IMG/VR virus record: IMGVR_UViG_3300027563_000599
DNA length: 64,000 bases
Source: an uncultured virus (IMG/VR IMGVR_UViG_3300027563_000599)
Lineage: Duplodnaviria; Heunggongvirae; Uroviricota; Caudoviricetes
Strand: one strand, 5' to 3'
Shown here: positions 14,201 through 41,235 of the stretch, piece after piece
Layout: every line of letters starts with the position of its first letter
How positions within the stretch are numbered: position 1 is the stretch's first letter
The notes under the pieces: generated by a model
Seen by the model: only the letters and a program-made list of their open reading frames with translations
Told to the model about the DNA's origin: nothing
Databases searched by the model: none
Position numbers and translations under genes: made by a program

Positions 14201-14497
14201 ATGAGCAGACCAAAACCCAAAGTTCTATTAGAACTGACAAACAAAAGCACATACAAGACCGAACAGGTCTTGTCGTCAACGGGCGTTTGGGCAGTGTTTT
14301 ATGACAACAGTCCTATCAATCTCAAAACCAGTAACATGCTGATACAACATCCTGGACCCAAGTACAAAAAGGTCAGTTTCTCCAATCCTGGGCATGCACA
14401 CAATCTTTCAAAAAAATTAAATGCACAGTTCAAAACAGACAAGTTCTCTGTGATTTTGTTGACCCAGGGCGACAAAGTTCAGCCCGGCAGTGCGTGA
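14201..14497 (+). CDS. Hypothetical phage protein
   Basis: ATAAATA motif and AGGAG SD upstream. Confidence 0.7.
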   Translation: MSRPKPKVLLELTNKSTYKTEQVLSSTGVWAVFYDNSPINLKTSNMLIQHPGPKYKKVSFSNPGHAHNLSKKLNAQFKTDKFSVILLTQGDKVQPGSA

Positions 14498-14852
14498 CAA
14501 ACTACTGCTGACCCAAGCACTGGTGGCCAATCTGCCAGAAGAATTTGCTGAGTCAGCAGAAGTCGCTGTTCGGACCTGGTGGGCCAATATTCGAAAAACT
14601 GGTGGGCTACGACTTACTGATCATGGATTCTATGTGTTCAGTCGTGTGTTGGAATTAACACACTATGATTTAGAAATTCAACCTGGACCGAGCACCCGTC
14701 GTACTATTTTGTCGTTGGACCGTAAACTGCAAAGTCCTTACTATATCAAAGTTGAAAAACGTATTCCGGTGGAGATTTGCATGTTTGGCAGTCGCGAAGC
14801 AGTGGTAGCTCAGCTGTACGGCAATTTGGAAAAGTTCCTGGTCAACTATTGA
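14490..14852 (+). CDS. Hypothetical protein
   Basis: GTG start overlapping previous ORF. Confidence 0.6.
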   Translation: MRDKLLLTQALVANLPEEFAESAEVAVRTWWANIRKTGGLRLTDHGFYVFSRVLELTHYDLEIQPGPSTRRTILSLDRKLQSPYYIKVEKRIPVEICMFGSREAVVAQLYGNLEKFLVNY

Positions 14853-14910
14853 AGATCGGCCTGCACTAAAAAATATTGGCAAAAAAACAGCAATTTGGAC
14901 AACCTGAGGG

Positions 14911-14939
14911 TTGACCTTGTATAAATAAACCTATACAAT
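14911..14939 (+). promoter_or_regulatory. sigma70-type promoter with embedded TATAAATA, heading the tRNA region
   Basis: TTGACC-N17-TACAAT; TATAAATA at 14920-14927. Confidence 0.7.
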
Positions 14940-14982
14940 ACACACATGCGCTGATAAAACGGCTCATGTAAATTTTAAAGAA

Positions 14983-15129
14983 ATGAAAATGCAAACGAAC
15001 TTGTTACATTCTATATCAAATTGTTCTGCCAAGCAGGCGGGCTTCACGCCCTCTATTTGGTTTGCAATTAATAGCATGTCATATGATCGCACACCAGAGG
15101 TTACCAGGGTCCGGGAGACCAAATTGTAA
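14983..15129 (+). CDS. Putative attenuator leader peptide (48 aa, all 20 amino acids)
   Basis: MKMQTNLLHSISNCSAKQAGFTPSIWFAINSMSYDRTPEVTRVRETKL*; 3' end overlaps antiterminator; SD weak. Confidence 0.55.
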   Translation: MKMQTNLLHSISNCSAKQAGFTPSIWFAINSMSYDRTPEVTRVRETKL

Positions 15130-15161
15130 GCAACAGTTTACAGTTAAACTCCAAGGACCCT
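15106..15161 (+). promoter_or_regulatory. Antiterminator hairpin
   Basis: AGGGTCC/GGACCCT, GGAG/CTCC, AATTGTAAGC/GTTTACAGTT nested helices. Confidence 0.6.
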
Positions 15162-15191
15162 AGGATTAAAACCCTAGGGTTTTTTGTTTTT
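15157..15191 (+). terminator. Intrinsic terminator
   Basis: ACCCTAGG/CCTAGGGT 8-bp stem followed by TTTTTGTTTTT. Confidence 0.8.
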
Positions 15192-15203
15192 AGCAAGGAG
15201 AAA

Positions 15204-15365
15204 ATGAAAAAATCAGATTTAAAACGAAGAATGCGCGAAGTAAGATTTACCACAGAGCATACTCTGACTGCGGATCAGCGAAATCAGTTGATACGAGATA
15301 AATTGGAACGTGCTCGGATAGAATCCGAAAATCGCAAACGAGTCAAGAATCAGCTTTTGACATAG
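15204..15365 (+). CDS. Small basic hypothetical protein (53 aa)
   Basis: AAGGAG SD; MKKSDLKRRMREVRFTTEHTL... Confidence 0.6.
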   Translation: MKKSDLKRRMREVRFTTEHTLTADQRNQLIRDKLERARIESENRKRVKNQLLT

Positions 15366-15554
15366 ATCTTCTTAAAGTGTTGACAGGAAACGAGGTCCTG
15401 TGCTACACTATAAACAAGCACAAACGGGCGGCGGCCAGGATGAAATCCCTTGTATGGGAGGAAAAATCGGTTCGTATTAAAGCATTCTTTAAGAACAGGC
15501 AGCCTAAGTATTTTAGAGTGCTTTAATACACACATTGGCGACAGTGTGTTACGT

Positions 15555-15631
15555 GTGGGTGTGTAGCTGAATGGTTAGGCCCCGGATTGCAAATCCGTAT
15601 CATGCAGGTTCAAGTCCTGTCACCCACTCCA
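15555..15631 (+). tRNA. tRNA-Cys(GCA)
   Basis: Loop TTGCAAA, T-arm GGTTCAAGTCC, U73-CCA; 5' register slightly irregular. Confidence 0.8.
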
Positions 15632-15642
15632 AATTTTATAAA

Positions 15643-16413
15643 ATGAAAAATATGAAATTATTTGCCATTGTGTTTTTTTGTGCAGCATTGACCAATGCTA
15701 CAGCTCGAACCAGTGAGCCCACAGTGTTGGTCTACAACATCAACGCACAGCACACGGAACTGAACCGTTATGCCGATCAGGTGAGATCCATGGCCAGTAT
15801 AACCAAGCTGATGACTGCCATGGTCGCACTGGATCACAACAGAGATCTACTACAGCCAATGATGTTGGGGAAAAACAGCGGTAGTCGATTGCCGCCTGGT
15901 CAGTACACCAGAGAGCAGTTGTTAAAGGCCATGTTGGTCAGCAGTGACAACGGAGCAGCCGAAGCCATCGCACAGGACTATCCCGGGGGCCGATCTGCAT
16001 TTGTAGCTGAGATGAATCGGCATGCTAAAATGTGGGATCTTCGAAATACTAAATTTGTAGATCCGTCGGGACTGGGCGTGTTCAATGTGACCACTGCGCA
16101 GGACCTGGCGGAGATGGTGCAGATTGCTGCCGGTTATTGGTTTATACAAGAAGTCAGCGGTCAACCCACTGTACAGTTAAAAAAGTCAGACCGAACTCGT
16201 GGCAACACTTTGAATCTCATTCACACATCTCAACAACTGATGGCAGAGTTTGACCGTGTGGCTGTGAGCAAGACTGGATTTACCACGCCAGCTGGGTGGT
16301 GTGTGGCCATGTTGGTGGAACACAACCGGCAACAGTATGCAGTGATTGTGTTGGGTGCCAGTTCCAAACTGGATCGCAATGCAATTATAAAGAAAGCGTT
16401 TAAAAATTTATAA
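15643..16413 (+). CDS. D-alanyl-D-alanine carboxypeptidase/endopeptidase (peptidase S11)
   Basis: Signal peptide; SITK, SDN, KTG catalytic motifs. Confidence 0.88.
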   Translation: MKNMKLFAIVFFCAALTNATARTSEPTVLVYNINAQHTELNRYADQVRSMASITKLMTAMVALDHNRDLLQPMMLGKNSGSRLPPGQYTREQLLKAMLVSSDNGAAEAIAQDYPGGRSAFVAEMNRHAKMWDLRNTKFVDPSGLGVFNVTTAQDLAEMVQIAAGYWFIQEVSGQPTVQLKKSDRTRGNTLNLIHTSQQLMAEFDRVAVSKTGFTTPAGWCVAMLVEHNRQQYAVIVLGASSKLDRNAIIKKAFKNL

Positions 16414-16417
16414 CATT

Positions 16418-16509
16418 GGCCCTGTAGTTTAATGGTAAAACGGCGGATTTATATCCCGTAAGCAACAGATAATTGGTTCATGTGGGTTCGAATCCCGCCG
16501 GGGCTACCA
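16418..16509 (+). tRNA. tRNA-Ile(TAT) with long variable region
   Basis: Loop TTTATAT, about 22-nt variable region, A73-CCA. Confidence 0.7.
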
Positions 16510-16515
16510 AATTCA

Positions 16516-16607
16516 GGAAGATGATGCAGCGGGGTTGGTCCTGCGACTGGCCTTGAAAACCAGGTTCTCTTAACAGGGATGGGGTTCGACTCCTCCGTCT
16601 TCCGCCA
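16516..16607 (+). tRNA. tRNA-Ser(TGA), 8/4-type fold
   Basis: GGAAGATG/CGTCTTCC acceptor, loop CTTGAAA, long V arm, G73-CCA. Confidence 0.75.
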
Positions 16608-16613
16608 AACAAC

Positions 16614-16703
16614 GGTGTGGTCCTATAATGGTATTAGAGCAGATTGCTAATCTGTCGCTCGGCGTAATCCGGGTTCTGAGTTCGAGTCTCAGTCACACCG
16701 CCA
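16614..16703 (+). tRNA. tRNA-Ser(GCT)
   Basis: Loop TTGCTAA, long V arm, GCCA. Confidence 0.88.
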
Positions 16704-16708
16704 ACATT

Positions 16709-16784
16709 GCCAACGTAGCTCATCAGGTAGAGCACCAGACTGAAAATCTGGGTGTGACTGGTTCGAGTCCAGTCGTTGGTACCA
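16709..16784 (+). tRNA. tRNA-Phe(GAA)
   Basis: Cloverleaf, loop CTGAAAA, ACCA. Confidence 0.92.
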
Positions 16785-16788
16785 ATCT

Positions 16789-16863
16789 GGGTCCTTGGTG
16801 AAATGGATATCATGCTTGGCTTCGAACCAAGTGGTGTGGGTTCGATTCCTGCAGGACCCGCCA
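16789..16863 (+). tRNA. tRNA-Arg(TCG)
   Basis: Loop CTTCGAA, GCCA. Confidence 0.88.
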
Positions 16864-16870
16864 AAAATTT

Positions 16871-16945
16871 AGCCGTGTAGCTCAGAGGAAGAGCAAACGC
16901 TTGATAAGCGTTAGGTCGACATTTCGAAACTGTCCATGGCTACCA
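16871..16945 (+). tRNA. tRNA-Ile(GAT)
   Basis: Loop TTGATAA, ACCA; imperfect T-stem. Confidence 0.85.
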
Positions 16946-16951
16946 GTCAGT

Positions 16952-17025
16952 GTATCTCTAATGTAATGGCAGCATGACAGTCTCCAAAACTGTTCGTCGG
17001 GGTTCGAGTCCCTGGAGGTACGCCA
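16952..17025 (+). tRNA. tRNA-Trp(CCA)
   Basis: Loop CTCCAAA, GCCA. Confidence 0.9.
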
Positions 17026-17066
17026 ACAATAACCCTACTGCAAGTAGTGTTAACTAAAGTACTAAG

Positions 17067-17232
17067 TTGACCAATTAACGGCAATTTGCTACAATAGAAG
17101 CAAGTTAAGAAATTAACTGGATCTGCAAATAACCCTACATGTTGTAGGGTGTTTGCAAAACAAATTGACTAGATATAGCCATTGTGCTATACTAGAGACT
17201 AGTTAGGAAATTAACTAGACGTTCTTTAAAAA
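17067..17232 (+). promoter_or_regulatory. Tandem sigma70 promoters followed by boxB-like hairpin and boxA-like sequence
   Basis: TTGACC-N17-TACAAT (17067), TTGACT-N17-TATACT (17165), hairpin CTAGTTA-GGAAAT-TAACTAG, CGTTCTTTAAAAA. Confidence 0.6.
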
Positions 17233-17262
17233 GTTGTTGTTTTTGGTAACCCGCAAGGGTTG

Positions 17263-17475
17263 CTATTTTAAAACATATTAAAGGTTACCTAGACCACTAG
17301 GCGACTGGGATGATGACAGTACCGACGGGCGCTGGTCAAGTCCAGGAGCATGAAGCAGGAGCAATCCGGATTTGCGGTGGGCCTTCTAGGAAGTAATGAC
17401 CGTGCAGGCCCTATGTAGACGTTGCATAGGGTAGAGACAGATGCACAATGGTTCCTTTAGTATTTTTTAATATAG
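17263..17475 (+). ncRNA. Unidentified structured RNA closed by a 22-bp terminal stem
   Basis: 20/22 paired ends; internal hairpin CCCTATGTA/TGCATAGGG; no ORF. Confidence 0.5.
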
Positions 17476-17477
17476 TT

Positions 17478-17553
17478 GGTCTTAAAGTGTTCATGGACGC
17501 ACGATGGCTTGTCACGCCATAAGAGTGGGGATCGTTACCCCCTAAGACCGCCA
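17478..17553 (+). tRNA. tRNA-Asp(GTC)
   Basis: Loop TTGTCAC, GCCA; atypical T-loop ATCGTTA. Confidence 0.82.
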
Positions 17554-17561
17554 ATTTTTTT

Positions 17562-17623
17562 GAGAGCCACATCGCCTGGACACTTCCCTCTTTGAGGCAC
17601 TAGGTCCTGCAACCGTGGCTCTC
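17562..17623 (+). ncRNA. Unidentified small structured RNA
   Basis: GAGAGCCAC/GTGGCTCTC 9-bp stem, GGAC/GTCC inner stem; followed by terminator-like CCCTGT/ACAGGG-TTTTT. Confidence 0.4.
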
Positions 17624-17684
17624 CTCCTTTAACACGGCCCTGTTCGGTTGCTTAACTGGACTGCTACAGGGTTTTTCTTTTCAT

Positions 17685-17759
17685 GCTCGATTCGTCTATC
17701 GGTTAGGACACCGGGTTTTCATCCCGGTAAGAGCGGTTCGATTCCGCTATCGAGTACCA
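17685..17759 (+). tRNA. tRNA-Glu(TTC)
   Basis: Loop TTTTCAT, ACCA. Confidence 0.9.
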
Positions 17760-17820
17760 AGTTTTGTTAGAGTGTCAGCAAGAGAAAGTCACGCTGTCTA
17801 GGTAAGTTCGAACTCAACAC

Positions 17821-17894
17821 GCCCTATTAGTATAATGGCATTACACCTGTTTTGTAATCAGGTTACGGCAGTTCGATTCTGTCATGGGGCACCA
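17821..17894 (+). tRNA. tRNA-Thr(TGT)
   Basis: Loop TTTGTAA, ACCA. Confidence 0.88.
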
Positions 17895-17902
17895 AGAATT
17901 AT

Positions 17903-17986
17903 GTGAGCGTGGTGGAATGGTATACACAGCAGACTTAAAATCTGCCGCCTTCGGGATTGAGGGTTCAAGTCCCTCCGCTCATACCA
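17903..17986 (+). tRNA. tRNA-Leu(TAA)
   Basis: Loop CTTAAAA, V arm, ACCA. Confidence 0.92.
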
Positions 17987-17992
17987 AGTTTA

Positions 17993-18078
17993 GGAGGTGC
18001 CGCCGTAATGGTATGGCAGCGGACTGTAACTCCGCCGGACTCAGGTCTCAATAGGTTCGATCCCTATCACCTCCACCA
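17993..18078 (+). tRNA. tRNA-Tyr(GTA)
   Basis: Loop CTGTAAC, V arm, ACCA. Confidence 0.9.
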
Positions 18079-18082
18079 GAAC

Positions 18083-18269
18083 GTTCTGTTTAATCAACAG
18101 ATAGTGCGACCCGCACGATGAGAAGTGGTGTGATAGCCACGGGTGGTAGTCTTTGAACCGAAAGGCCGCTGGCAATGCGATAACGGTTCCTGTCGGGAAG
18201 CGGGTGGAAGGTATGTGTGATGACTCCAAAGGTCTGATGTACTACAATTACCGCCGGGGGATGCAGAGC
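18083..18269 (+). ncRNA. Unidentified structured RNA (about 190 nt), possibly pseudoknotted
   Basis: GTTCTGT/GCAGAGC ends; GGTGGTAGT/ATTACCGCC; crossing ACCCGC/GCGGGT. Confidence 0.5.
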
Positions 18270-18273
18270 ATAT

Positions 18274-18347
18274 GGGGGATTAGTTAAATGGGATAACGGT
18301 AGCTTTGCAAGCTTCAATTAAGAGTTCGATTCTCTTATCCTCCACCA
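18274..18347 (+). tRNA. tRNA-Ala(TGC)
   Basis: G3:U70, loop TTTGCAA, ACCA. Confidence 0.9.
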
Positions 18348-18351
18348 ATTT

Positions 18352-18426
18352 AGGCCTTTAGTAAAATGAATATTACACTGGGCTACGAACCCGGAAGTGG
18401 GAGTTTGATTCTCTCAGGGCCTACCA
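18352..18426 (+). tRNA. tRNA-Arg(ACG)
   Basis: Loop CTACGAA, ACCA. Confidence 0.85.
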
Positions 18427-18447
18427 ATTTAAAACAAAGGAAACTTT

Positions 18448-18594
18448 ATGAAGAAACGTAAACCGATCGTGCGCGAACGTAACTGCTTCGTTCGTCTTGC
18501 ACTGTTCCGCAAAGCAGGTGCGCATCGCAAGAGCAACAAGGCTCTACGACGAGCACAAAAACAAAACCCATTAGGGGGTGAAACTTTAAGGTGA
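18448..18594 (+). CDS. Small basic protein, candidate ribosome-rescue (ArfA-like) factor; stop codon inside tRNA-Lys
   Basis: AAAGGA SD; MKKRKPIVRERNCFVRLALFRKAGAHRKSNKALRRAQKQNPLGGETLR*. Confidence 0.6.
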   Translation: MKKRKPIVRERNCFVRLALFRKAGAHRKSNKALRRAQKQNPLGGETLR

Positions 18595-18647
18595 AGTAAC
18601 TGGCTTTTAACCAGTAAAACTCGGATCGTTCCCGAGCACCCCTACCA
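18574..18647 (+). tRNA. tRNA-Lys(TTT)
   Basis: ACTGG-CTTTTAA-CCAGT, ACCA; atypical T-loop ATCGTTC. Confidence 0.82.
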
Positions 18648-18751
18648 TATAAAAACATATTCAAATGCTTAGGCCAGGCAGATGTAGCGGATTACAGCTC
18701 GACGACATGTTGGGTGGGCAGGTTCAATTCCTGCGGAGTATGTTTCTATAT
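18648..18751 (+). ncRNA. tRNA-like RNA with T-arm and extended terminal stem
   Basis: GCAGG-TTCAATT-CCTGC; closing stem 18644-18662/18736-18754; no CCA end. Confidence 0.45.
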
Positions 18752-18827
18752 GGTAATATAGCATAGTGGCTAATGCAGTTGCTTCATACGCAGCCTATCG
18801 TTGGTTCGAGTCCAACTATTACCACCA
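18752..18827 (+). tRNA. tRNA-Met(CAT), elongator (or Ile2)
   Basis: Loop TTCATAC, ACCA. Confidence 0.85.
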
Positions 18828-18841
18828 CGGTAACATTTTGT

Positions 18842-18915
18842 TGGGGGTTAGTGTAGCGGTAACACTACAGACTTTGACTCTGTCATCACTGGTTCGATCC
18901 CAGTACCCTCTGCCA
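18842..18915 (+). tRNA. tRNA-Gln(TTG)
   Basis: Loop CTTTGAC, GCCA. Confidence 0.88.
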
Positions 18916-18918
18916 ATT

Positions 18919-18993
18919 CTCGCCTTAGTATAATGGATAATACAAAGAGCTTCTACCTCTTGAATGTGGGTTCGATTCCTGCAGGCGAGGCCA
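18919..18993 (+). tRNA. tRNA-Arg(TCT)
   Basis: Loop CTTCTAC, GCCA. Confidence 0.88.
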
Positions 18994-19033
18994 CAATACT
19001 CAATTGACGATGATATCGTCAAATAAATAGAGG

Positions 19034-19927
19034 ATGATAAGATTATTTTTTGTTGCAGGTTCAAGAATTGCAGATTCAATACTTACCTTAAAGTTTGATC
19101 ACTTTCTTGACCCACAACCTGACCAAACATACATTTGTTTTGGCCCAGACCATAATCGAGAACCAATTGATCTGTTACAGATTTACCGAGATCATGGCAT
19201 TGATACTTCAAACATGACTGTTGTTTTTGACCAGCAATTGATGGAACGACAGTTGCTTCCAGAGTTTGACTATTACCAATTCTCAGGATGGATAGCCCAG
19301 CAATTTTTTAAATTACTGGCACTGGATCAAGTCAACAGCGACCGTGTGTTGATTCAAGATTGTGATACGTTTTCGTTGACGCCTTATCGATATTTTGATG
19401 GGTCAACCCCAAGGTATTACGTGATAGAAAATACCACACACAGTTTAGAATATTATCAATACGTAAAAAAGTTCACAGGGCAGGAACGTCAAACCAGTCA
19501 TTGTTTTGTCACAGAATTTATGCCTGTGCTAAAGAAAGACTGGGTGGCACTGAAAAATCACATAGAACAAACATACGGATGTAATTGGTTACTGGCCATG
19601 GCACAGGTGTTTTCCGCTGATGTCAATGCTAGTCCCGACAATTCTCCTCCAATTTGGTTTAGCGAATATGAACTTTTGGGCAATCTAGGGTTACAAAAAA
19701 ACCCCGATGCTGAATTTCAATTTCAAAATCGATTAAGCATTTATGATGACACCACTGGTTACTGGAAACAGCATGCTGACCACTATACCATTGAAGAATT
19801 TTTAAAACTAGATAATATTGACAAGTTTAACTGTGTTTGTATAAAATCAAGCACAGCAGTGGAAGAAGAACACCTGGTTCCAATTTTGAATTCAATTGTG
19901 TCTTGGAGTTCTCCACTCAACAAATAA
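19034..19927 (+). CDS. Hypothetical glycosyltransferase-like protein (DUF6492-like)
   Basis: GWIAQQFFKL, DCD, FSEYELLG motifs. Confidence 0.55.
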   Translation: MIRLFFVAGSRIADSILTLKFDHFLDPQPDQTYICFGPDHNREPIDLLQIYRDHGIDTSNMTVVFDQQLMERQLLPEFDYYQFSGWIAQQFFKLLALDQVNSDRVLIQDCDTFSLTPYRYFDGSTPRYYVIENTTHSLEYYQYVKKFTGQERQTSHCFVTEFMPVLKKDWVALKNHIEQTYGCNWLLAMAQVFSADVNASPDNSPPIWFSEYELLGNLGLQKNPDAEFQFQNRLSIYDDTTGYWKQHADHYTIEEFLKLDNIDKFNCVCIKSSTAVEEEHLVPILNSIVSWSSPLNK

Positions 19928-19928
19928 T

Positions 19929-20004
19929 GGAGTTGTTAGTGTAACGGTCAACACCACGGATTGTGATTCCGTTAATACGGGTTCGATTCCCGTACGACTC
20001 CCCA
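19929..20004 (+). tRNA. tRNA-His(GTG)
   Basis: G-1:C73, loop TTGTGAT. Confidence 0.9.
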
Positions 20005-20008
20005 GACT

Positions 20009-20083
20009 GGTTTCTTAGTTCAGCGGTAGAACGCTTGGTCGACATCCAAGAGGTCACTGGTTCGACCCCAGTAGGAACCACCA
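20009..20083 (+). tRNA. tRNA-Val(GAC)
   Basis: Loop TCGACAT, ACCA. Confidence 0.88.
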
Positions 20084-20085
20084 TT

Positions 20086-20159
20086 GCTCTTGTAGTTAAG
20101 TGGCATAACGGCTCCATGGTAAGGAGCAGTCGACAGTTCGATTCTGTACTTGAGCACCA
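20086..20159 (+). tRNA. tRNA-Thr(GGT)
   Basis: Loop ATGGTAA, ACCA. Confidence 0.82.
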
Positions 20160-20212
20160 AATTATCTGCAGACAAGAGATAGCAATAAATATTTTACACA
20201 ACAAGGACTCCA

Positions 20213-20371
20213 ATGAGATCAACATCAACATTCAAACTGGCCAAGCGAACAAAAACATTGCTGGCATTGCTAAAGTTTAAAGATCAACACGATCGCAACG
20301 AGTTCAAGCGAGCCATGATTGATGCACAGTTGTCGGCCGCAGTGCCGCAGTCGTTCAAAGAACGCAAGTAA
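20213..20371 (+). CDS. Small hypothetical protein (52 aa)
   Basis: ATAAATA motif and AAGGA SD; MRSTSTFKLAKRTK...AMIDAQL. Confidence 0.6.
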   Translation: MRSTSTFKLAKRTKTLLALLKFKDQHDRNEFKRAMIDAQLSAAVPQSFKERK

Positions 20372-20378
20372 AAAATAT

Positions 20379-20454
20379 TCCCCAGTAGCACAGCGGTAGT
20401 TGCACTTGACTGTTAATCAAGGTGTCCGTGGTTCGATCCCACGCTGGGGAGCCA
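20379..20454 (+). tRNA. tRNA-Asn(GTT)
   Basis: Loop CTGTTAA, GCCA. Confidence 0.92.
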
Positions 20455-20463
20455 AATTATTGT

Positions 20464-20546
20464 GGGCAAGTGGTGTAATGGTAGCCACGCTGGTCTTAGA
20501 AGCCAGTGCCTAGTGCGTGAGAGTTCGAGTCTCTCCTTGCCCACCA
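20464..20546 (+). tRNA. tRNA-Leu(TAG)
   Basis: Loop CTTAGAA, V arm, ACCA. Confidence 0.9.
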
Positions 20547-20559
20547 CATGTTAGTAGAT

Positions 20560-20633
20560 GCGGGATTAGTTTAATGGTCAAACGAAACCTTGCCAAGGTT
20601 TAGTCAGGAGTTCGATTCTCCTATCCCGCTCCA
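20560..20633 (+). tRNA. tRNA-Gly(GCC)
   Basis: Loop TTGCCAA, TCCA. Confidence 0.9.
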
Positions 20634-20651
20634 ATTATTAGAGACAACGAT

Positions 20652-21152
20652 ATGAAAAAGCTCAATCTAGAAGAAGTCAAGGCTTTTATCGAAGAACAAA
20701 CCCCAGAAACAAAAATCTACCTGGGCTGTGACAGTGAACGTGTTCGAGTCAACGGCGTTTGGTATGCCGACTATGTGTTGGCCATTGTGGTACACATCAA
20801 CGGCAACAACGGTTGCAAACTGTTTGGTGAAGTGCAACGTGAACGTGACTATGATCAAAAAACTTCACAGCCACGCATGCGGCTTATGACCGAAGTGTAC
20901 AAGGTGTCAGAACTGTATCTACGCCTAGGCGAAGTGTTGGAACATCGTCCTGTTGAAGTTCACTTGGACATCAACCCCAACGACCAATTCGGATCCAGCT
21001 GTGTGATATCTCAAGCAGTGGGCTACATCAAAGGTACCTGCAATGTGACACCACTGGTCAAACCCGATGCATTTGCTGCCAGCTATGCCGCAGATCGATT
21101 CAGAGGTCTGGGCACTGCACAACAGCGCAGTACGGTTAACAGTCGCAGATGA
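20652..21152 (+). CDS. RNase H-like YkuK family protein
   Basis: IYLGCDS, RLMTEV, EVHLDIN, KPDAFAASYAAD. Confidence 0.75.
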   Translation: MKKLNLEEVKAFIEEQTPETKIYLGCDSERVRVNGVWYADYVLAIVVHINGNNGCKLFGEVQRERDYDQKTSQPRMRLMTEVYKVSELYLRLGEVLEHRPVEVHLDINPNDQFGSSCVISQAVGYIKGTCNVTPLVKPDAFAASYAADRFRGLGTAQQRSTVNSRR

Positions 21153-21169
21153 TTTGGACAACTGCAGAG

Positions 21170-21198
21170 TTGACAGTCAACCCTGCGAGTGTTATAAT
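21170..21198 (+). promoter_or_regulatory. sigma70-type promoter
   Basis: TTGACA-N17-TATAAT with extended -10 TG. Confidence 0.7.
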
Positions 21199-21206
21199 AC
21201 AGAATA

Positions 21207-21296
21207 GGAAGCGTGTCCGAGTGGCCGATGGAACTGGTCTACTAAACCAGCATACGAGTAATCGTATCGTGAGTTCGAATCTCACCGCTTCCGCCA
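21207..21296 (+). tRNA. tRNA-Ser(ACT)
   Basis: Canonical Ser body (long V arm, G73), loop CTACTAA. Confidence 0.85.
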
Positions 21297-21297
21297 A

Positions 21298-21861
21298 TCC
21301 CGGTTTACTGTTTTTACGTTATAAAACAGCGTCCCTGAAACGATAGAACAGGGGGTACACTAGGACCTGACCTTACAGTCTCCTGTTCGGAGATACTGAA
21401 AACTGCCTAGGGTGAGGAACGCTAACCTTTACCATAAGAACAAATACGTAGACGGAGTAGTCAGCCCGGTCCGGGGCTCCTGTGGTGGGAGTAGCCGGAC
21501 ACTTTATTGAAGCACATACTGATTCGCGGGTGGATACCCCGAGATAGCCAGATCCAGGTTGAAGAACGGTTTAAGTGTGTTTCAATAAAGTGTTTTTGGC
21601 AGTAGGCCTTTGGCAACTGCCCGGAGAAGAGAAAGAGACGAGAGCTGACACCCATTATCGCTTCATGCGACGATGAACAAACTCTGGCCGGCGCCTTGAA
21701 AACGCCTCGTGCTTGTGTGAACTGGTCTTTATCTATCAACTTTGTGATTTGCTAACCAGACATATGCAGGTCTCTGTGCTTTGTGCATTGTGACTTGTGA
21801 GAGATTGAGAGATCAATCTCACTGTTATTTGTCCAGTTGGTCACTTGCTTTCTTGACTTCG
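21298..21861 (+). ncRNA. Series of unidentified structured RNAs
   Basis: About 560 nt without a credible ORF, dense in helices (see findings). Confidence 0.45.
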
Positions 21862-21898
21862 TTATTTTTTTGTTGTATAATTGATCAAAAGGAAATGT

Positions 21899-22468
21899 AT
21901 GAATATCAGTCTACGTAAAGCAAGTGCATTGCAGAACAGCATCAACGATGCTGTCAAAGGTATCGACCTTAAAGGTCAAGTCAGCTTGACAGAGTTCCAC
22001 GCTCCTGTGATGGAAATTGACAAGGCCACCGCAGAGTTTAAGGCCAATCTGGCCCGACGTGATGCTTTGGTGCGAGCTCTGTATGACATTCGTGCGCAGG
22101 TCAGTGCTGTCAACAGCCGTGTGGGCGTAGACGACAAGCTGACTCAGATTGCCTTTCTTGAAAAGCAGATTCAGAACTACACAGCATTGAGTGCAAATGA
22201 AGTTCGTGAACAAGAAGCAGTCGTGTTGGGCAAGTTGGACAAGATTAAAAACCGTAAAGAAGATACTCGCAGTATCTACGGTTTTGAAAGCACAGTGACC
22301 ACCACAGTGTTCACAGAAGCTGATATCAAAGGTTTCAAGGCCATTGTGACCAGTGCCAAAAAGGCCAAACAAAAATTGCAAGACGAAGTGTTGGAATTGA
22401 ATGTGCGCATAGACATTGCTCTGAGTGAGCAGACTGTGCAACATTTGACAGCAGAAGGTCTTTTGTAA
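21899..22468 (+). CDS. Hypothetical helical/coiled-coil protein
   Basis: AAAGGA SD; MNISLRKASALQ...KLQDEVLELN. Confidence 0.75.
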   Translation: MNISLRKASALQNSINDAVKGIDLKGQVSLTEFHAPVMEIDKATAEFKANLARRDALVRALYDIRAQVSAVNSRVGVDDKLTQIAFLEKQIQNYTALSANEVREQEAVVLGKLDKIKNRKEDTRSIYGFESTVTTTVFTEADIKGFKAIVTSAKKAKQKLQDEVLELNVRIDIALSEQTVQHLTAEGLL

Positions 22469-22475
22469 ACATTAT

Positions 22476-22550
22476 CGCGGGGTACGTCAGTGGTAGACCG
22501 CCAGGCTCATAACCTGGAAGCCGGAGGTTCGAGTCCTTCCCCCGCAACCA
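22476..22550 (+). tRNA. tRNA-fMet(CAT), initiator-like
   Basis: C1:A72 mismatch, loop CTCATAA. Confidence 0.85.
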
Positions 22551-22568
22551 TTATATAGGTAAAGTATT

Positions 22569-22643
22569 GCCCGATTAGCTCAGGGGTAGAGCAACCGCCT
22601 TGTAAGCGGTAGGTCGTCTGTTCGAATCAGACATTGGGCACCA
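22569..22643 (+). tRNA. tRNA-Thr(TGT), second copy
   Basis: Loop CTTGTAA, ACCA. Confidence 0.9.
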
Positions 22644-22649
22644 GTAATT

Positions 22650-22726
22650 CGGAGTGTGGCGCAGTCTGGTAGCGCACCTGGTTTGGGACCAGGGGGTCCA
22701 AGGTTCGAATCCTTGTACTCCGACCA
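22650..22726 (+). tRNA. tRNA-Pro(TGG)
   Basis: Loop TTTGGGA, ACCA. Confidence 0.93.
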
Positions 22727-30003: not shown

Positions 30004-30043
30004 TTTATTGTGAGTTAACAGTTATGTATAATAAATAATAGTT

Positions 30044-30369
30044 ATTGCTGTATGAAGCCGATAAAAATGGATTCAAGACGCGGGTTCGACTCCCGCCACC
30101 TCCACCTAAGTGTATAAGGTATATTTAGGTGGGGGTGACCAGGTTATCGATTGGGTCAGAAGTATTGAAGTGGACAGCTCGGCAAGGTAGAAGCCGTAGG
30201 ATTGGGGCAACCCGGTCGAAGACACAAAAAACGTAAATGCAAACGCAAATACAGGCGAAGTAACTGTTTCAGGCAAGAGCGTCAAGTTCTCTGCTCGTTC
30301 AGTGAAAGCCGAATCTTTCGCAGTCTAACCACTGGCGTAGGGTAAGACATACCTCGTAACAGAAACTCA
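30044..30369 (+). ncRNA. ssrA: Circularly permuted (two-piece) tmRNA
   Basis: GACGCGGGTTCGACTCCCGCCACCTCCA acceptor piece precedes GGGGGTGAC..TCGA coding piece (G3:U70); resume codon after GTAAAT; tag ANANTGEVTVSGKSVKFSARSVKAESFAV* (30239-30328). Confidence 0.85.
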
Positions 30370-30392
30370 GAACCCGCTTCGGCGGGTTTCTC
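30370..30392 (+). terminator. Intrinsic terminator after tmRNA
   Basis: AACCCGC-TTCG-GCGGGTT hairpin. Confidence 0.75.
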
Positions 30393-30531
30393 TATTGATT
30401 TTGCCTATAGACATCATTAAAATATATTTGACAAGAATCCAACAAAGTCGTTGACTTGATTGATATATACTGGTATAATAACGTATCAGTGTTTACACTG
30501 AGATAGATTTCATTTTTAACAGGAGAAACAT

Positions 30532-41076: not shown

Positions 41077-41152
41077 GGGTCGTTAACTCAGTTGGTAGAG
41101 TTCCTGCCTTACACGCAGGCTGTCGGCGGTTCGAGCCCGTCACGACCCACCA
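41077..41152 (+). tRNA. tRNA-Val(TAC)
   Basis: Loop CTTACAC, ACCA. Confidence 0.93.
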
Positions 41153-41161
41153 AGAATTTAT

Positions 41162-41235
41162 GCGGGATTAGTTTAATGGCAAAACAGCAGATTTCCAATC
41201 TTCGGTCAAGAGTTCGATTCTCTTATCCCGCTCCA
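41162..41235 (+). tRNA. tRNA-Gly(TCC)
   Basis: Loop TTTCCAA, TCCA. Confidence 0.88.

Follow-up and report, generated by a model that had tools for sequence, protein, structure and literature searches.

In the leader-peptide attenuators of enterobacteria (trpL, hisL, leuL, thrL, pheL and the multivalent ilvL and ivbL), a short open reading frame (ORF) is translated while two structures with a segment in common, an antiterminator and an intrinsic terminator, compete in the nascent transcript. A ribosome that reaches the stop codon masks the 5′ arm of the antiterminator, and a ribosome that stalls where codons for one amino acid, or for a few, are clustered leads to read-through into genes for biosynthetic enzymes. 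Here we analyzed a putative element of this type in a 64,000-nucleotide (nt) stretch of DNA from an uncultured tailed virus (IMG/VR record IMGVR_UViG_3300027563_000599, Caudoviricetes), hereafter termed the window. The element consists of a promoter, a leader ORF that uses all 20 amino acids and two mutually exclusive hairpins, and it is located upstream of an array of transfer RNA (tRNA) genes (Table 1). This element is, in our view, likely to be a ribosome-mediated attenuator whose default state is ON; it would sense the supply of every charged tRNA and gate a small ORF, a structured RNA (RNA X) and the first tRNA genes.

When compared with the enterobacterial leaders (for pheL, see the abstract of PMC3082878), four of the features by which an attenuator is recognized were found, i.e., the leader ORF (its translation is predicted), the intrinsic terminator, the covarying and mutually exclusive antiterminator, and the placement of the stop codon. 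Read-through upon stalling is likewise predicted. Three others were absent, i.e., the run of regulatory codons, the protector (1:2) hairpin, and targets that are biosynthetic or aminoacyl-tRNA synthetase genes. Instead of such a run, the phage leader carries codons for each of the 20 amino acids, the rare ones once; without a protector hairpin it is predicted to be ON when it is not translated, and behind it lie the small ORF, RNA X, tRNA genes and a Peptidase_S11 gene.

Two other classes of leader share part of this logic. In pyrBI and pyrE the outcome is also set by the closeness of ribosome and RNA polymerase near the end of the leader ORF, but there a close ribosome prevents the terminator and pausing that depends on uridine triphosphate is the signal, whereas here a close ribosome is predicted to cause termination through disruption of the antiterminator. 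T-box riboswitches are cis-acting terminator/antiterminator switches that report tRNA charging, as is predicted here, but they bind one uncharged tRNA, are untranslated, precede synthetase or amino acid genes and occur mainly in Gram-positive bacteria. A search of the window with Rfam (release 15, gathering score) matched only tRNAs and a permuted transfer-messenger RNA (tmRNA), with no leader, T-box or other riboswitch; the best hit of an E-value search of 14800-15400 had an E value of 1.5, and 16 loci from relatives of the phage gave tRNAs only. TnaC, in whose short leader peptide Trp, Asp and Pro residues are conserved, was considered as well. The distance from Trp26 to Pro38 in the window is 12 residues, as in TnaC, but we regard this likeness as a coincidence: the spacing is not conserved (14 residues in the homologs L012 and L003), the Pro can be replaced and termination is intrinsic. 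In the abstracts surveyed, neither phage tRNA genes under attenuation nor a leader peptide composed of all 20 amino acids was described, and the "pangram" sensing logic is unlike any attenuator found there.

The original prediction, made from the letters of the window alone, had proposed the promoter, the leader ORF, a long hairpin that contains the stop codon and a terminator overlapping this hairpin, and their coordinates could be reproduced. The leader ORF contains 36 distinct codons (including ATA, TTA, AGG and CGG), and the full amino acid set is reached within its first 40 codons. To judge from close relatives, the ATG at 14989 is a likelier start than the one at 14983, and the 46-residue product would still contain all 20 amino acids. 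The segment 15157-61 is common to the 3′ arm of the antiterminator and the 5′ arm of the terminator. In a fold of 15100-15190 the minimum-energy structure was the antiterminator (-35.5 kcal/mol, z score -5.03; -28.6 kcal/mol for the antiterminator alone), and it was retained in the minimum-energy structure of the whole leader (14940-15195, z score -4.73). A single genome does not take the pattern beyond chance. Of the ATG-initiated ORFs of 35-60 amino acids in the window, 3/161 hold the full set, and 23 promoter-like sites were found versus 19.4 ± 4.7 in shuffled sequences, i.e., there was no excess. The significance of the pattern comes only from the comparison with relatives.

Relatives were collected from uncultured freshwater jumbo-phage contigs, and all the counts given are samples among the matches listed, not a census. 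An exact 32-mer of the terminator retrieved 7 loci (with respect to the window, four identical, one 89% identical and three 71-77% identical). Two degenerate patterns, one on the codons of a DRTPE peptide motif and the other on the shared arm plus terminator, yielded at least 120 loci each, and a leader-blind pattern placed on the downstream RNA X yielded at least 120 further loci. In the terminator- and DRTPE-anchored sets, part of the sequence is fixed by the way in which they were chosen. Each of the 131 unique terminator-anchored elements has an ORF that starts with ATG, is 41 codons or longer and ends between the two antiterminator arms, whereas the competing frames are open in 11 and 0 cases (forward) and in 20, 2 and 0 cases (reverse). 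Differences in ORF length preserve the frame, and the stop codon is TAA in 126 elements and TAG in 5. The GGGTCC of the 5′ arm is read in differing frames among homologs (AGG GTC C in the window, GGG TCC in L006), so that this arm is constrained as nucleic acid. At the DR codons, CGC and CGT alternate synonymously, which points to a coding constraint at these codons. Sequence of 1 kb or more past the terminator is available for 41 elements, and in all 41 of them tRNA genes on the same strand begin 221-741 nt (median 465 nt) behind it. The identity of the first tRNA varies among relatives, and 7 of 46 have a tRNA within the available upstream sequence.

The two helices were then compared among 44 diverse sequences. 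The outer antiterminator helix is paired in 99.4% of the cells and the terminator in 100%. Most pairs are invariant in the terminator-anchored set, partly owing to the way in which it was collected, a bias from which the leader-blind set is free. Column 74, the one variable column of the shared segment, covaries with both of its partners: with column 6, its partner in the antiterminator, it forms AU in 24 sequences, GC in 16, GU in 2 and other combinations in 2, and with column 91, its partner in the terminator, CG in 18, UA in 16 and UG in 10. Over the 131 elements, the triplets formed by these columns are G-C-G in 48, A-T-G in 38, A-T-A in 34, G-T-A or G-T-G (wobble) in 5 and mismatched in 6, and the terminator stem has 8-9 contiguous base pairs (bp) in every one. 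The leader-blind set contains 34 leaders with other arms, and 17 distinct 7-mers serve as arm in the whole set; in the lineages with other arms, the resemblance between the terminator 3′ arm and the upstream arm recurs. In 55 of the 61 leader-blind leaders, upstream pairing takes up 60% or more of the terminator 5′ arm in the minimum-energy fold, with a mean paired fraction of 0.75 vs 0.41 after shuffling of the upstream part. Of the two structures, the antiterminator is the more stable one in 131/131 elements (median -23.5 vs -12.9 kcal/mol) and in 61/61 of the RNA-X-anchored leaders. The inner antiterminator segment has a median z score of -3.5 in the 44 sampled sequences.

The amino acid set is kept to an extent that none of the null models reproduced. 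Among 130 unique peptides (41-67 amino acids, mean 47), 106 contain all 20 amino acids, 21 contain 19 and 3 contain 18. After pooling with the RNA-X-anchored set, 129/169 unique peptides (27-67 amino acids) are complete; the leader-blind set alone gives 40/61, among them 21/34 of the leaders whose arms are non-canonical, and its complete peptides go down to lengths of 38-41 amino acids. Random windows of the ORFs of the phage, or draws from the family composition, are complete in 3-4% of the cases at 46-48 amino acids and in 0.6% at 38 amino acids. Shuffling of alignment columns gives 16.8% (maximum 27%). Evolution of independent sites along a tree built from the flanks only, starting from a complete ancestor and calibrated for divergence, gives 18-19% (maximum 38% in 100 runs), and the 82% observed at the tips of that tree was reached in 0/100 simulations. 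When the peptides were grouped into 28 clusters at an identity of at least 40%, 16 clusters were mostly complete, vs 0.91 expected and a maximum of 7 in 200,000 simulations. The small ORFs adjacent to the leader in the same phages (98 unique, median 53 amino acids) include 3 complete ones and have a mean of 16.6 distinct amino acids, vs 19.8 in the leaders. The caveat of the original prediction that the codon diversity is close to chance stood for the single genome, and did not stand across relatives.

Cys, Trp, His and Tyr are mostly present in a single copy. Cys is found exactly once in 113 of the 130 peptides, twice in 10 and not at all in 7, and yet its positions are spread over 30 alignment columns and reach all four parts of the peptide. 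His is absent from none of the 130 and occupies 26 columns. Tyr directly precedes the conserved Trp in 46 peptides and Asp-Arg in 58, with both in 2, and 23 of the 24 peptides with Tyr at neither site have it elsewhere. At least 31 changes of the Tyr state and at least 60 of the location class of Cys were counted on the flank tree, numbers that errors of the tree may inflate, and Cys is lost 6 times. The amino acid set is under selection, and relocation without loss is its signature. Together with the retained ORF, the stop position, the covarying helices and the location upstream of tRNA genes, this completes the comparisons that the original prediction had named as checks, and each of them came out in its favour. 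The attenuator that it proposed is thereby supported; leader translation, regulated termination, the direction of the switch, the signal sensed, a response to tRNA shortage or to anticodon nucleases and the benefit to the phage are inferences.

The placement of the stop codon relative to the two arms is restricted. From the start of the 5′ arm to the stop there are 14-32 nt in the 131 homologs, and from the stop to the shared arm 22-34 nt; in the set with other arms these distances are 7-32 and 23-39 nt. A ribosome has a footprint of ~30 nt and, on its 3′ side, unwinds RNA up to ~11 nt beyond the first base of the P site. With these dimensions as constraints on folding, the antiterminator remained intact for A-site positions up to codon 39 (-33.6 kcal/mol, vs -35.5 for free RNA), and the 12-bp terminator was obtained when the ribosome stood at codon 44 or had reached the stop. 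In this model the terminator hairpin forms solely when the ribosome covers 15094-15139, and the logic that it predicts is ON by default and OFF only upon timely arrival of a ribosome. The leader folds contain no trp-type protector hairpin, and the 5′ arm is not engaged by the possible hairpin within the leader ORF. The codons that precede the arm, ~37 in number, supply the whole amino acid set in 80/106 complete canonical peptides, vs 16.8 ± 3.8 (maximum 32) with random residue order.

According to the mechanism that we propose, transcription would begin at ~14945. If a ribosome keeps pace and stands at the last codons or at the stop (15127), it would occupy the 5′ arm (15106-12), the shared segment would then pair with 15173-80, the terminator would form and a ~240-nt transcript would end there. 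If the ribosome is absent, or has stalled earlier for lack of a charged tRNA, the much stronger antiterminator would form first and the polymerase would continue into the small ORF, RNA X and the first tRNA genes. Output of tRNAs would thus rise when the decoding of any amino acid is slow, and fall when the pool is sufficient. The shortage might be brought about by an anticodon-nuclease defence of the host or by a phage-induced loss of host tRNAs. Why phages carry such arrays has long been asked, and current answers include compensation of codon usage and evasion of defences that cleave tRNAs (abstracts of PMC10264068 and PMC11555353); the control of these arrays has hardly been addressed. On balance we lean towards the leader being a universal gauge of aminoacyl-tRNAs, i.e., one codon per amino acid within ~37 codons, with any single shortage switching on RNA X and the phage tRNAs. 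Were this true, phages would measure the decoding capacity of the host and answer with their own tRNAs, and one tiny ORF would let a large clade of lake jumbo phages keep watch over all of the decoding pool. Leader-peptide attenuation would then extend from the sensing of single metabolites to that of a whole pool, and the leader would be a compact natural reporter of 37 codons for any shortage of amino acid or tRNA.

Transcripts of the locus were found as assembled contigs in 4 lake or freshwater metatranscriptome runs of 4 studies. RNA contigs identical to the window are present in all 4, at 14946-15397, 14945-15430 and 14963-15428 in three of the runs and at 14961-15111 and 15090-15240 in the fourth, and the region 14770-14863 is not covered by RNA contigs in any of the 4. 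Two of the starts (14945 and 14946, from runs X1 and X2 of two studies) are 6-7 nt past the -10 box, which fits the predicted promoter, and three of the contigs bridge the terminator and extend to 15397-15430; this is a hint of promoter activity and read-through rather than a measurement. A sigma-70-like site with at least 10/12 consensus matches is present within 90 nt of the ATG in 118/130 homologs. The promoter spacer of the window contains TATAAATA at 14920-27, and TAAATA is found at the promoters of 92/130 homologs, a motif that we take to be the late-promoter consensus of phage T4. In 31 homologs the ATG is merely 6-11 nt past the -10 box, and these leaders may be leaderless mRNAs.

RNA X is located behind the switch and ahead of the first tRNA, and its 5′ domain was found downstream in 82/87 homologs. 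In 20 of these 82 it is at most 75 nt from the terminator, which leaves no room for a promoter of its own; where it abuts the terminator, RNA X can be made only by read-through. This arrangement, together with the contigs that cross the terminator, speaks against a second interpretation, in which the locus is a self-contained small gene whose peptide and/or ~240-nt terminated RNA acts in trans, the hairpin stabilizing the 3′ end and the terminator merely ending the gene. Products of attenuators with trans functions, both small RNAs and leader peptides, have been reported for Sinorhizobium (abstracts of PMC6614838 and PMC7968998), and the locus has its own promoter, a strong terminator, the partly conserved motif W...(S/N)DR(T)PE with its synonymous codons and, in some relatives, a separate promoter past the terminator. 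Nevertheless, we regard such a gene as decidedly unlikely. A stabilizing hairpin need not compete with the terminator, whereas here the overlap is kept with entirely different arms and the competitor is always the stronger structure; apart from a few positions, the peptide is free to change while its set is kept, and it matched no Pfam or PHROG family.

Several findings weigh against an attenuator that senses every charged tRNA. At least one amino acid is supplied solely by antiterminator codons in 26/106 complete canonical peptides and in 11/20 complete peptides with other arms. Stalling at these codons should favour termination. If the ribosome edge is set more strictly, at +12 nt, only 16/130 leaders hold all 20 amino acids upstream, and with an edge at +8 nt the set is upstream in only 9/20 complete peptides with other arms. 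Moreover, 40/169 peptides are incomplete, and the leaders of 27-34 amino acids of one clade lack 2-8 amino acids. One phage with a leader that lacks D, H, Q and V has 23 tRNAs in 16 kb, among which A, D, F, H and Y are missing; a second phage lacks C and E in its leader and D, E, Y and C in the downstream block. A strict independent-pairs test of Tyr gave 4.2 opposite and 0 same outcomes in 10 pairs (median p 0.125) and was underpowered. Extra tRNA cures a shortage of tRNA only, not amino acid starvation. The Shine-Dalgarno (SD) sequence of the leader ORF in the window is weak, as the original prediction had cautioned. The conserved peptide motif and the conserved terminator loop of 8-9 nt point to constraints that the attenuator model leaves without explanation. 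The RNA evidence consists of assembled contigs, from which strand, ends, ratios and termination efficiency cannot be derived. Promoter-like sites at 17067, 17165, 19818, 21170 and 21853 bypass the switch, and some relatives have strong promoters between the terminator, RNA X and the tRNAs.

Part of this evidence could be accommodated if the attenuator, although coupled to the ribosome, gauged how much translation the cell can sustain overall, or how far the infection has progressed (ribosome availability, transcription-translation coupling, host shut-off), and not each charged tRNA. With read-through as the predicted default in the absence of ribosomes, any loss of coupling would induce; the 31 near-leaderless leaders would tie the switch to the conditions of initiation; and the amino acids missing from a leader are not matched to the tRNAs missing from its array. 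This last point also led us to reject the idea that the leader is a list of the amino acids of the array, as there was no clean match in the two phages checked (records 45-58% complete). We nevertheless consider a mere capacity gauge unlikely, since it needs no full set, and completeness is far above every null, single-copy residues relocate instead of vanishing, and the set is concentrated upstream of the antiterminator.

The switch could also have the opposite polarity, with stalling causing termination, and the amino acids found solely in the tail codons of the 26 complete peptides would be sensed with that sign; or translation through the hairpin could control the processing or stability of RNA X and of the tRNA precursors, or the translation of the small ORF. 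In favour of such post-transcriptional control, the contigs of three runs end within RNA X, possibly at a processing site. Against both stand the distances between arms and stop, which equal those of classical attenuators, the SD of the small ORF, which is past the U-tract and unpaired in the folds, and the dispensability of this ORF in many relatives. We judge this opposite or post-transcriptional control to be highly improbable, and return to the attenuator that is ON by default for the description of the genes behind it.

Table 1. Features of the leader, the switch and the region behind it (positions in the window).
Feature	Position	Strand	Details
Promoter	14911..14939	+	-35 TTGACC 14911-16, 17-nt spacer, -10 TACAAT 14934-39; 10/12 consensus matches
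5′ untranslated leader	14945..14982	+	start ~14945/6 inferred from contig starts; small hairpin (fold 14940-15195); A-rich, weak ribosome-binding region
Leader ORF	14983..15129	+	48 codons, all 20 amino acids; stop TAA 15127-29
Possible hairpin inside the ORF	15057..15097	+	TTGGT..GC.ATT with AAT.GATCGC..ACCAG; spans the conserved W...DRTPE codons (RNAalifold, codon alignment, 64 diverse leaders)
Antiterminator	15106..15161	+	outer helix AGGGTCC 15106-12 / GGACCCT 15155-61; GGAG 15114-17 / CTCC 15149-52; 10-bp inner stem 15122-31 / 15136-45 with the stop codon
Intrinsic terminator	15153..15191	+	core ACCCTAGG 15157-64 / CCTAGGGT 15173-80, 8-nt loop, U-tract; GC-rich stem; scan reports a 12-pair stem 15153-15184
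Optional small ORF	15195..15365	+	SD AAGGAG 15195-15200; 53 amino acids at 15204-15365; first gene past the switch
Structured RNA X	15372..15553	+	between the switch and the first tRNA; fold z score -4.52; conserved loops, covarying stems
First tRNA-array stretch	15555..17025	+	tRNA-Cys, Peptidase_S11 gene, tRNAs Ile, Ser, Phe, Arg, Ile, Trp (ARAGORN, Rfam); next promoter-like sites 17067, 17165

The original prediction had counted 29 downstream tRNAs for all 20 amino acids. ARAGORN identified 28 tRNAs at 15555-22726 and 2 more at 41077-41235, which together cover all 20 amino acids, so that the coverage stood and the count did not; the array does not follow the terminator directly, as the small ORF and the ~180 nt of RNA X intervene. 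Among the bypass sites that it had listed, those at 17067, 17165 and 21170 were recovered. At 15380-15409 there is probably no promoter, since the hexamers are parts of conserved, covarying hairpins of RNA X and are absent in relatives. Because the later promoters bypass it, the switch can be one input only among several, and its reach in the phage of the window is probably to ~17.0 kb. The Peptidase_S11 gene within this reach encodes a D-Ala-D-Ala carboxypeptidase (Pfam PF00768, 1.8e-34) with a signal-peptide-like N-terminus. It probably starts near 15643 and extends to 16413, as the longest call (15571-16413) overlaps the tRNA-Cys gene. Two tRNA calls are unusual, i.e., a 90-nt "tRNA-Ser" with anticodon ACT (21207-21296) and a 92-nt "tRNA-Ile" (16418-16509) whose anticodon is TAT and whose extra arm is long.

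The small ORF is present in most homologs, and where it is absent RNA X directly follows the terminator. Its product has a weak match to phrog_20536 (E value 0.0058), a PHROG of unknown function. The members of this family have 50-55 amino acids, a conserved core of the form ...HTL(T/S)..(E/D)Q...LI..K(L/I)ERA... and a strong SD. In RNA X (homologs include L012, L250 and L324), a hairpin loop AACGAGG, a hairpin loop CACT(A/T)TAAACA and the single-stranded AAACGGGCGG could be distinguished, as well as a long helix that encloses a variable insert and, ~10 nt ahead of the tRNA, a 3′ hairpin. RNA X had no match in Rfam (E-value search of 15185-15640 and 16 homolog loci), and RNAalifold on a MAFFT alignment, which was poor, returned 3 pairs only. 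Its identification as a reduced RNase P RNA was dropped: the resemblance has no Rfam support, and the 3′ part is not conserved. The ends of the three longer RNA contigs lie within 33 nt (15397-15430) in the 5′ part of RNA X, and coverage is low at 15428-15521; these ends could mark a processing site or a break of the assembly.

Further observations concern the leader itself. In the possible hairpin of the leader ORF, most pairs are conserved and covariation is slight, and constraints on RNA and on peptide are inseparable there; it is a candidate pause hairpin for RNA polymerase. NNT codons are preferred in the leaders for His, Tyr, Asp and Asn, a bias that was compared with the genes of the window only and is suggestive only. 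A two-codon mini-ORF (ATG CGC TGA, 14946-14954) is located at or next to the inferred transcript start; it is kept in L008 (89% identical) and not in farther relatives. The terminator loop (15165-15172) has 8 nt in the window, ATTAAAAC, and 9 nt in most homologs, with the conserved form A(T/C)TAAA(A/C)AC; ATTAAAAAC occurs in 51/131 homologs. The conservation of this unusually long loop suggests a role beyond closure of the hairpin.

With regard to the phage, GenBank phages (50,697 records) gave no blastn match to 14400-15600 or to RNA X, and a 28-kb record that is identical to the window over 14400-15600 was used as a stand-in. The RNase H/flap-endonuclease gene beside the locus has at most 52% identity to PA5oct and other groups of jumbo phages (tblastn), and uncultured relatives are numerous in IMG/VR. 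A pattern scan of genome contigs gave at least 120 matches, and among those listed almost all are due to chance; two are plausible, L379 and L410, which are small contigs in metagenome-assembled genomes of Bacteroidota, binned with uncultured Bacteroidetes from a lake and with Marinifilum. This binning is a weak hint of host range or an artefact, and is insufficient to name a host. Finally, the permuted, two-piece tmRNA of the window is encoded at 30015-30419 (Rfam RF04321, 93 bits at 30046-30271), and ARAGORN predicts a tag of 29 residues for it.

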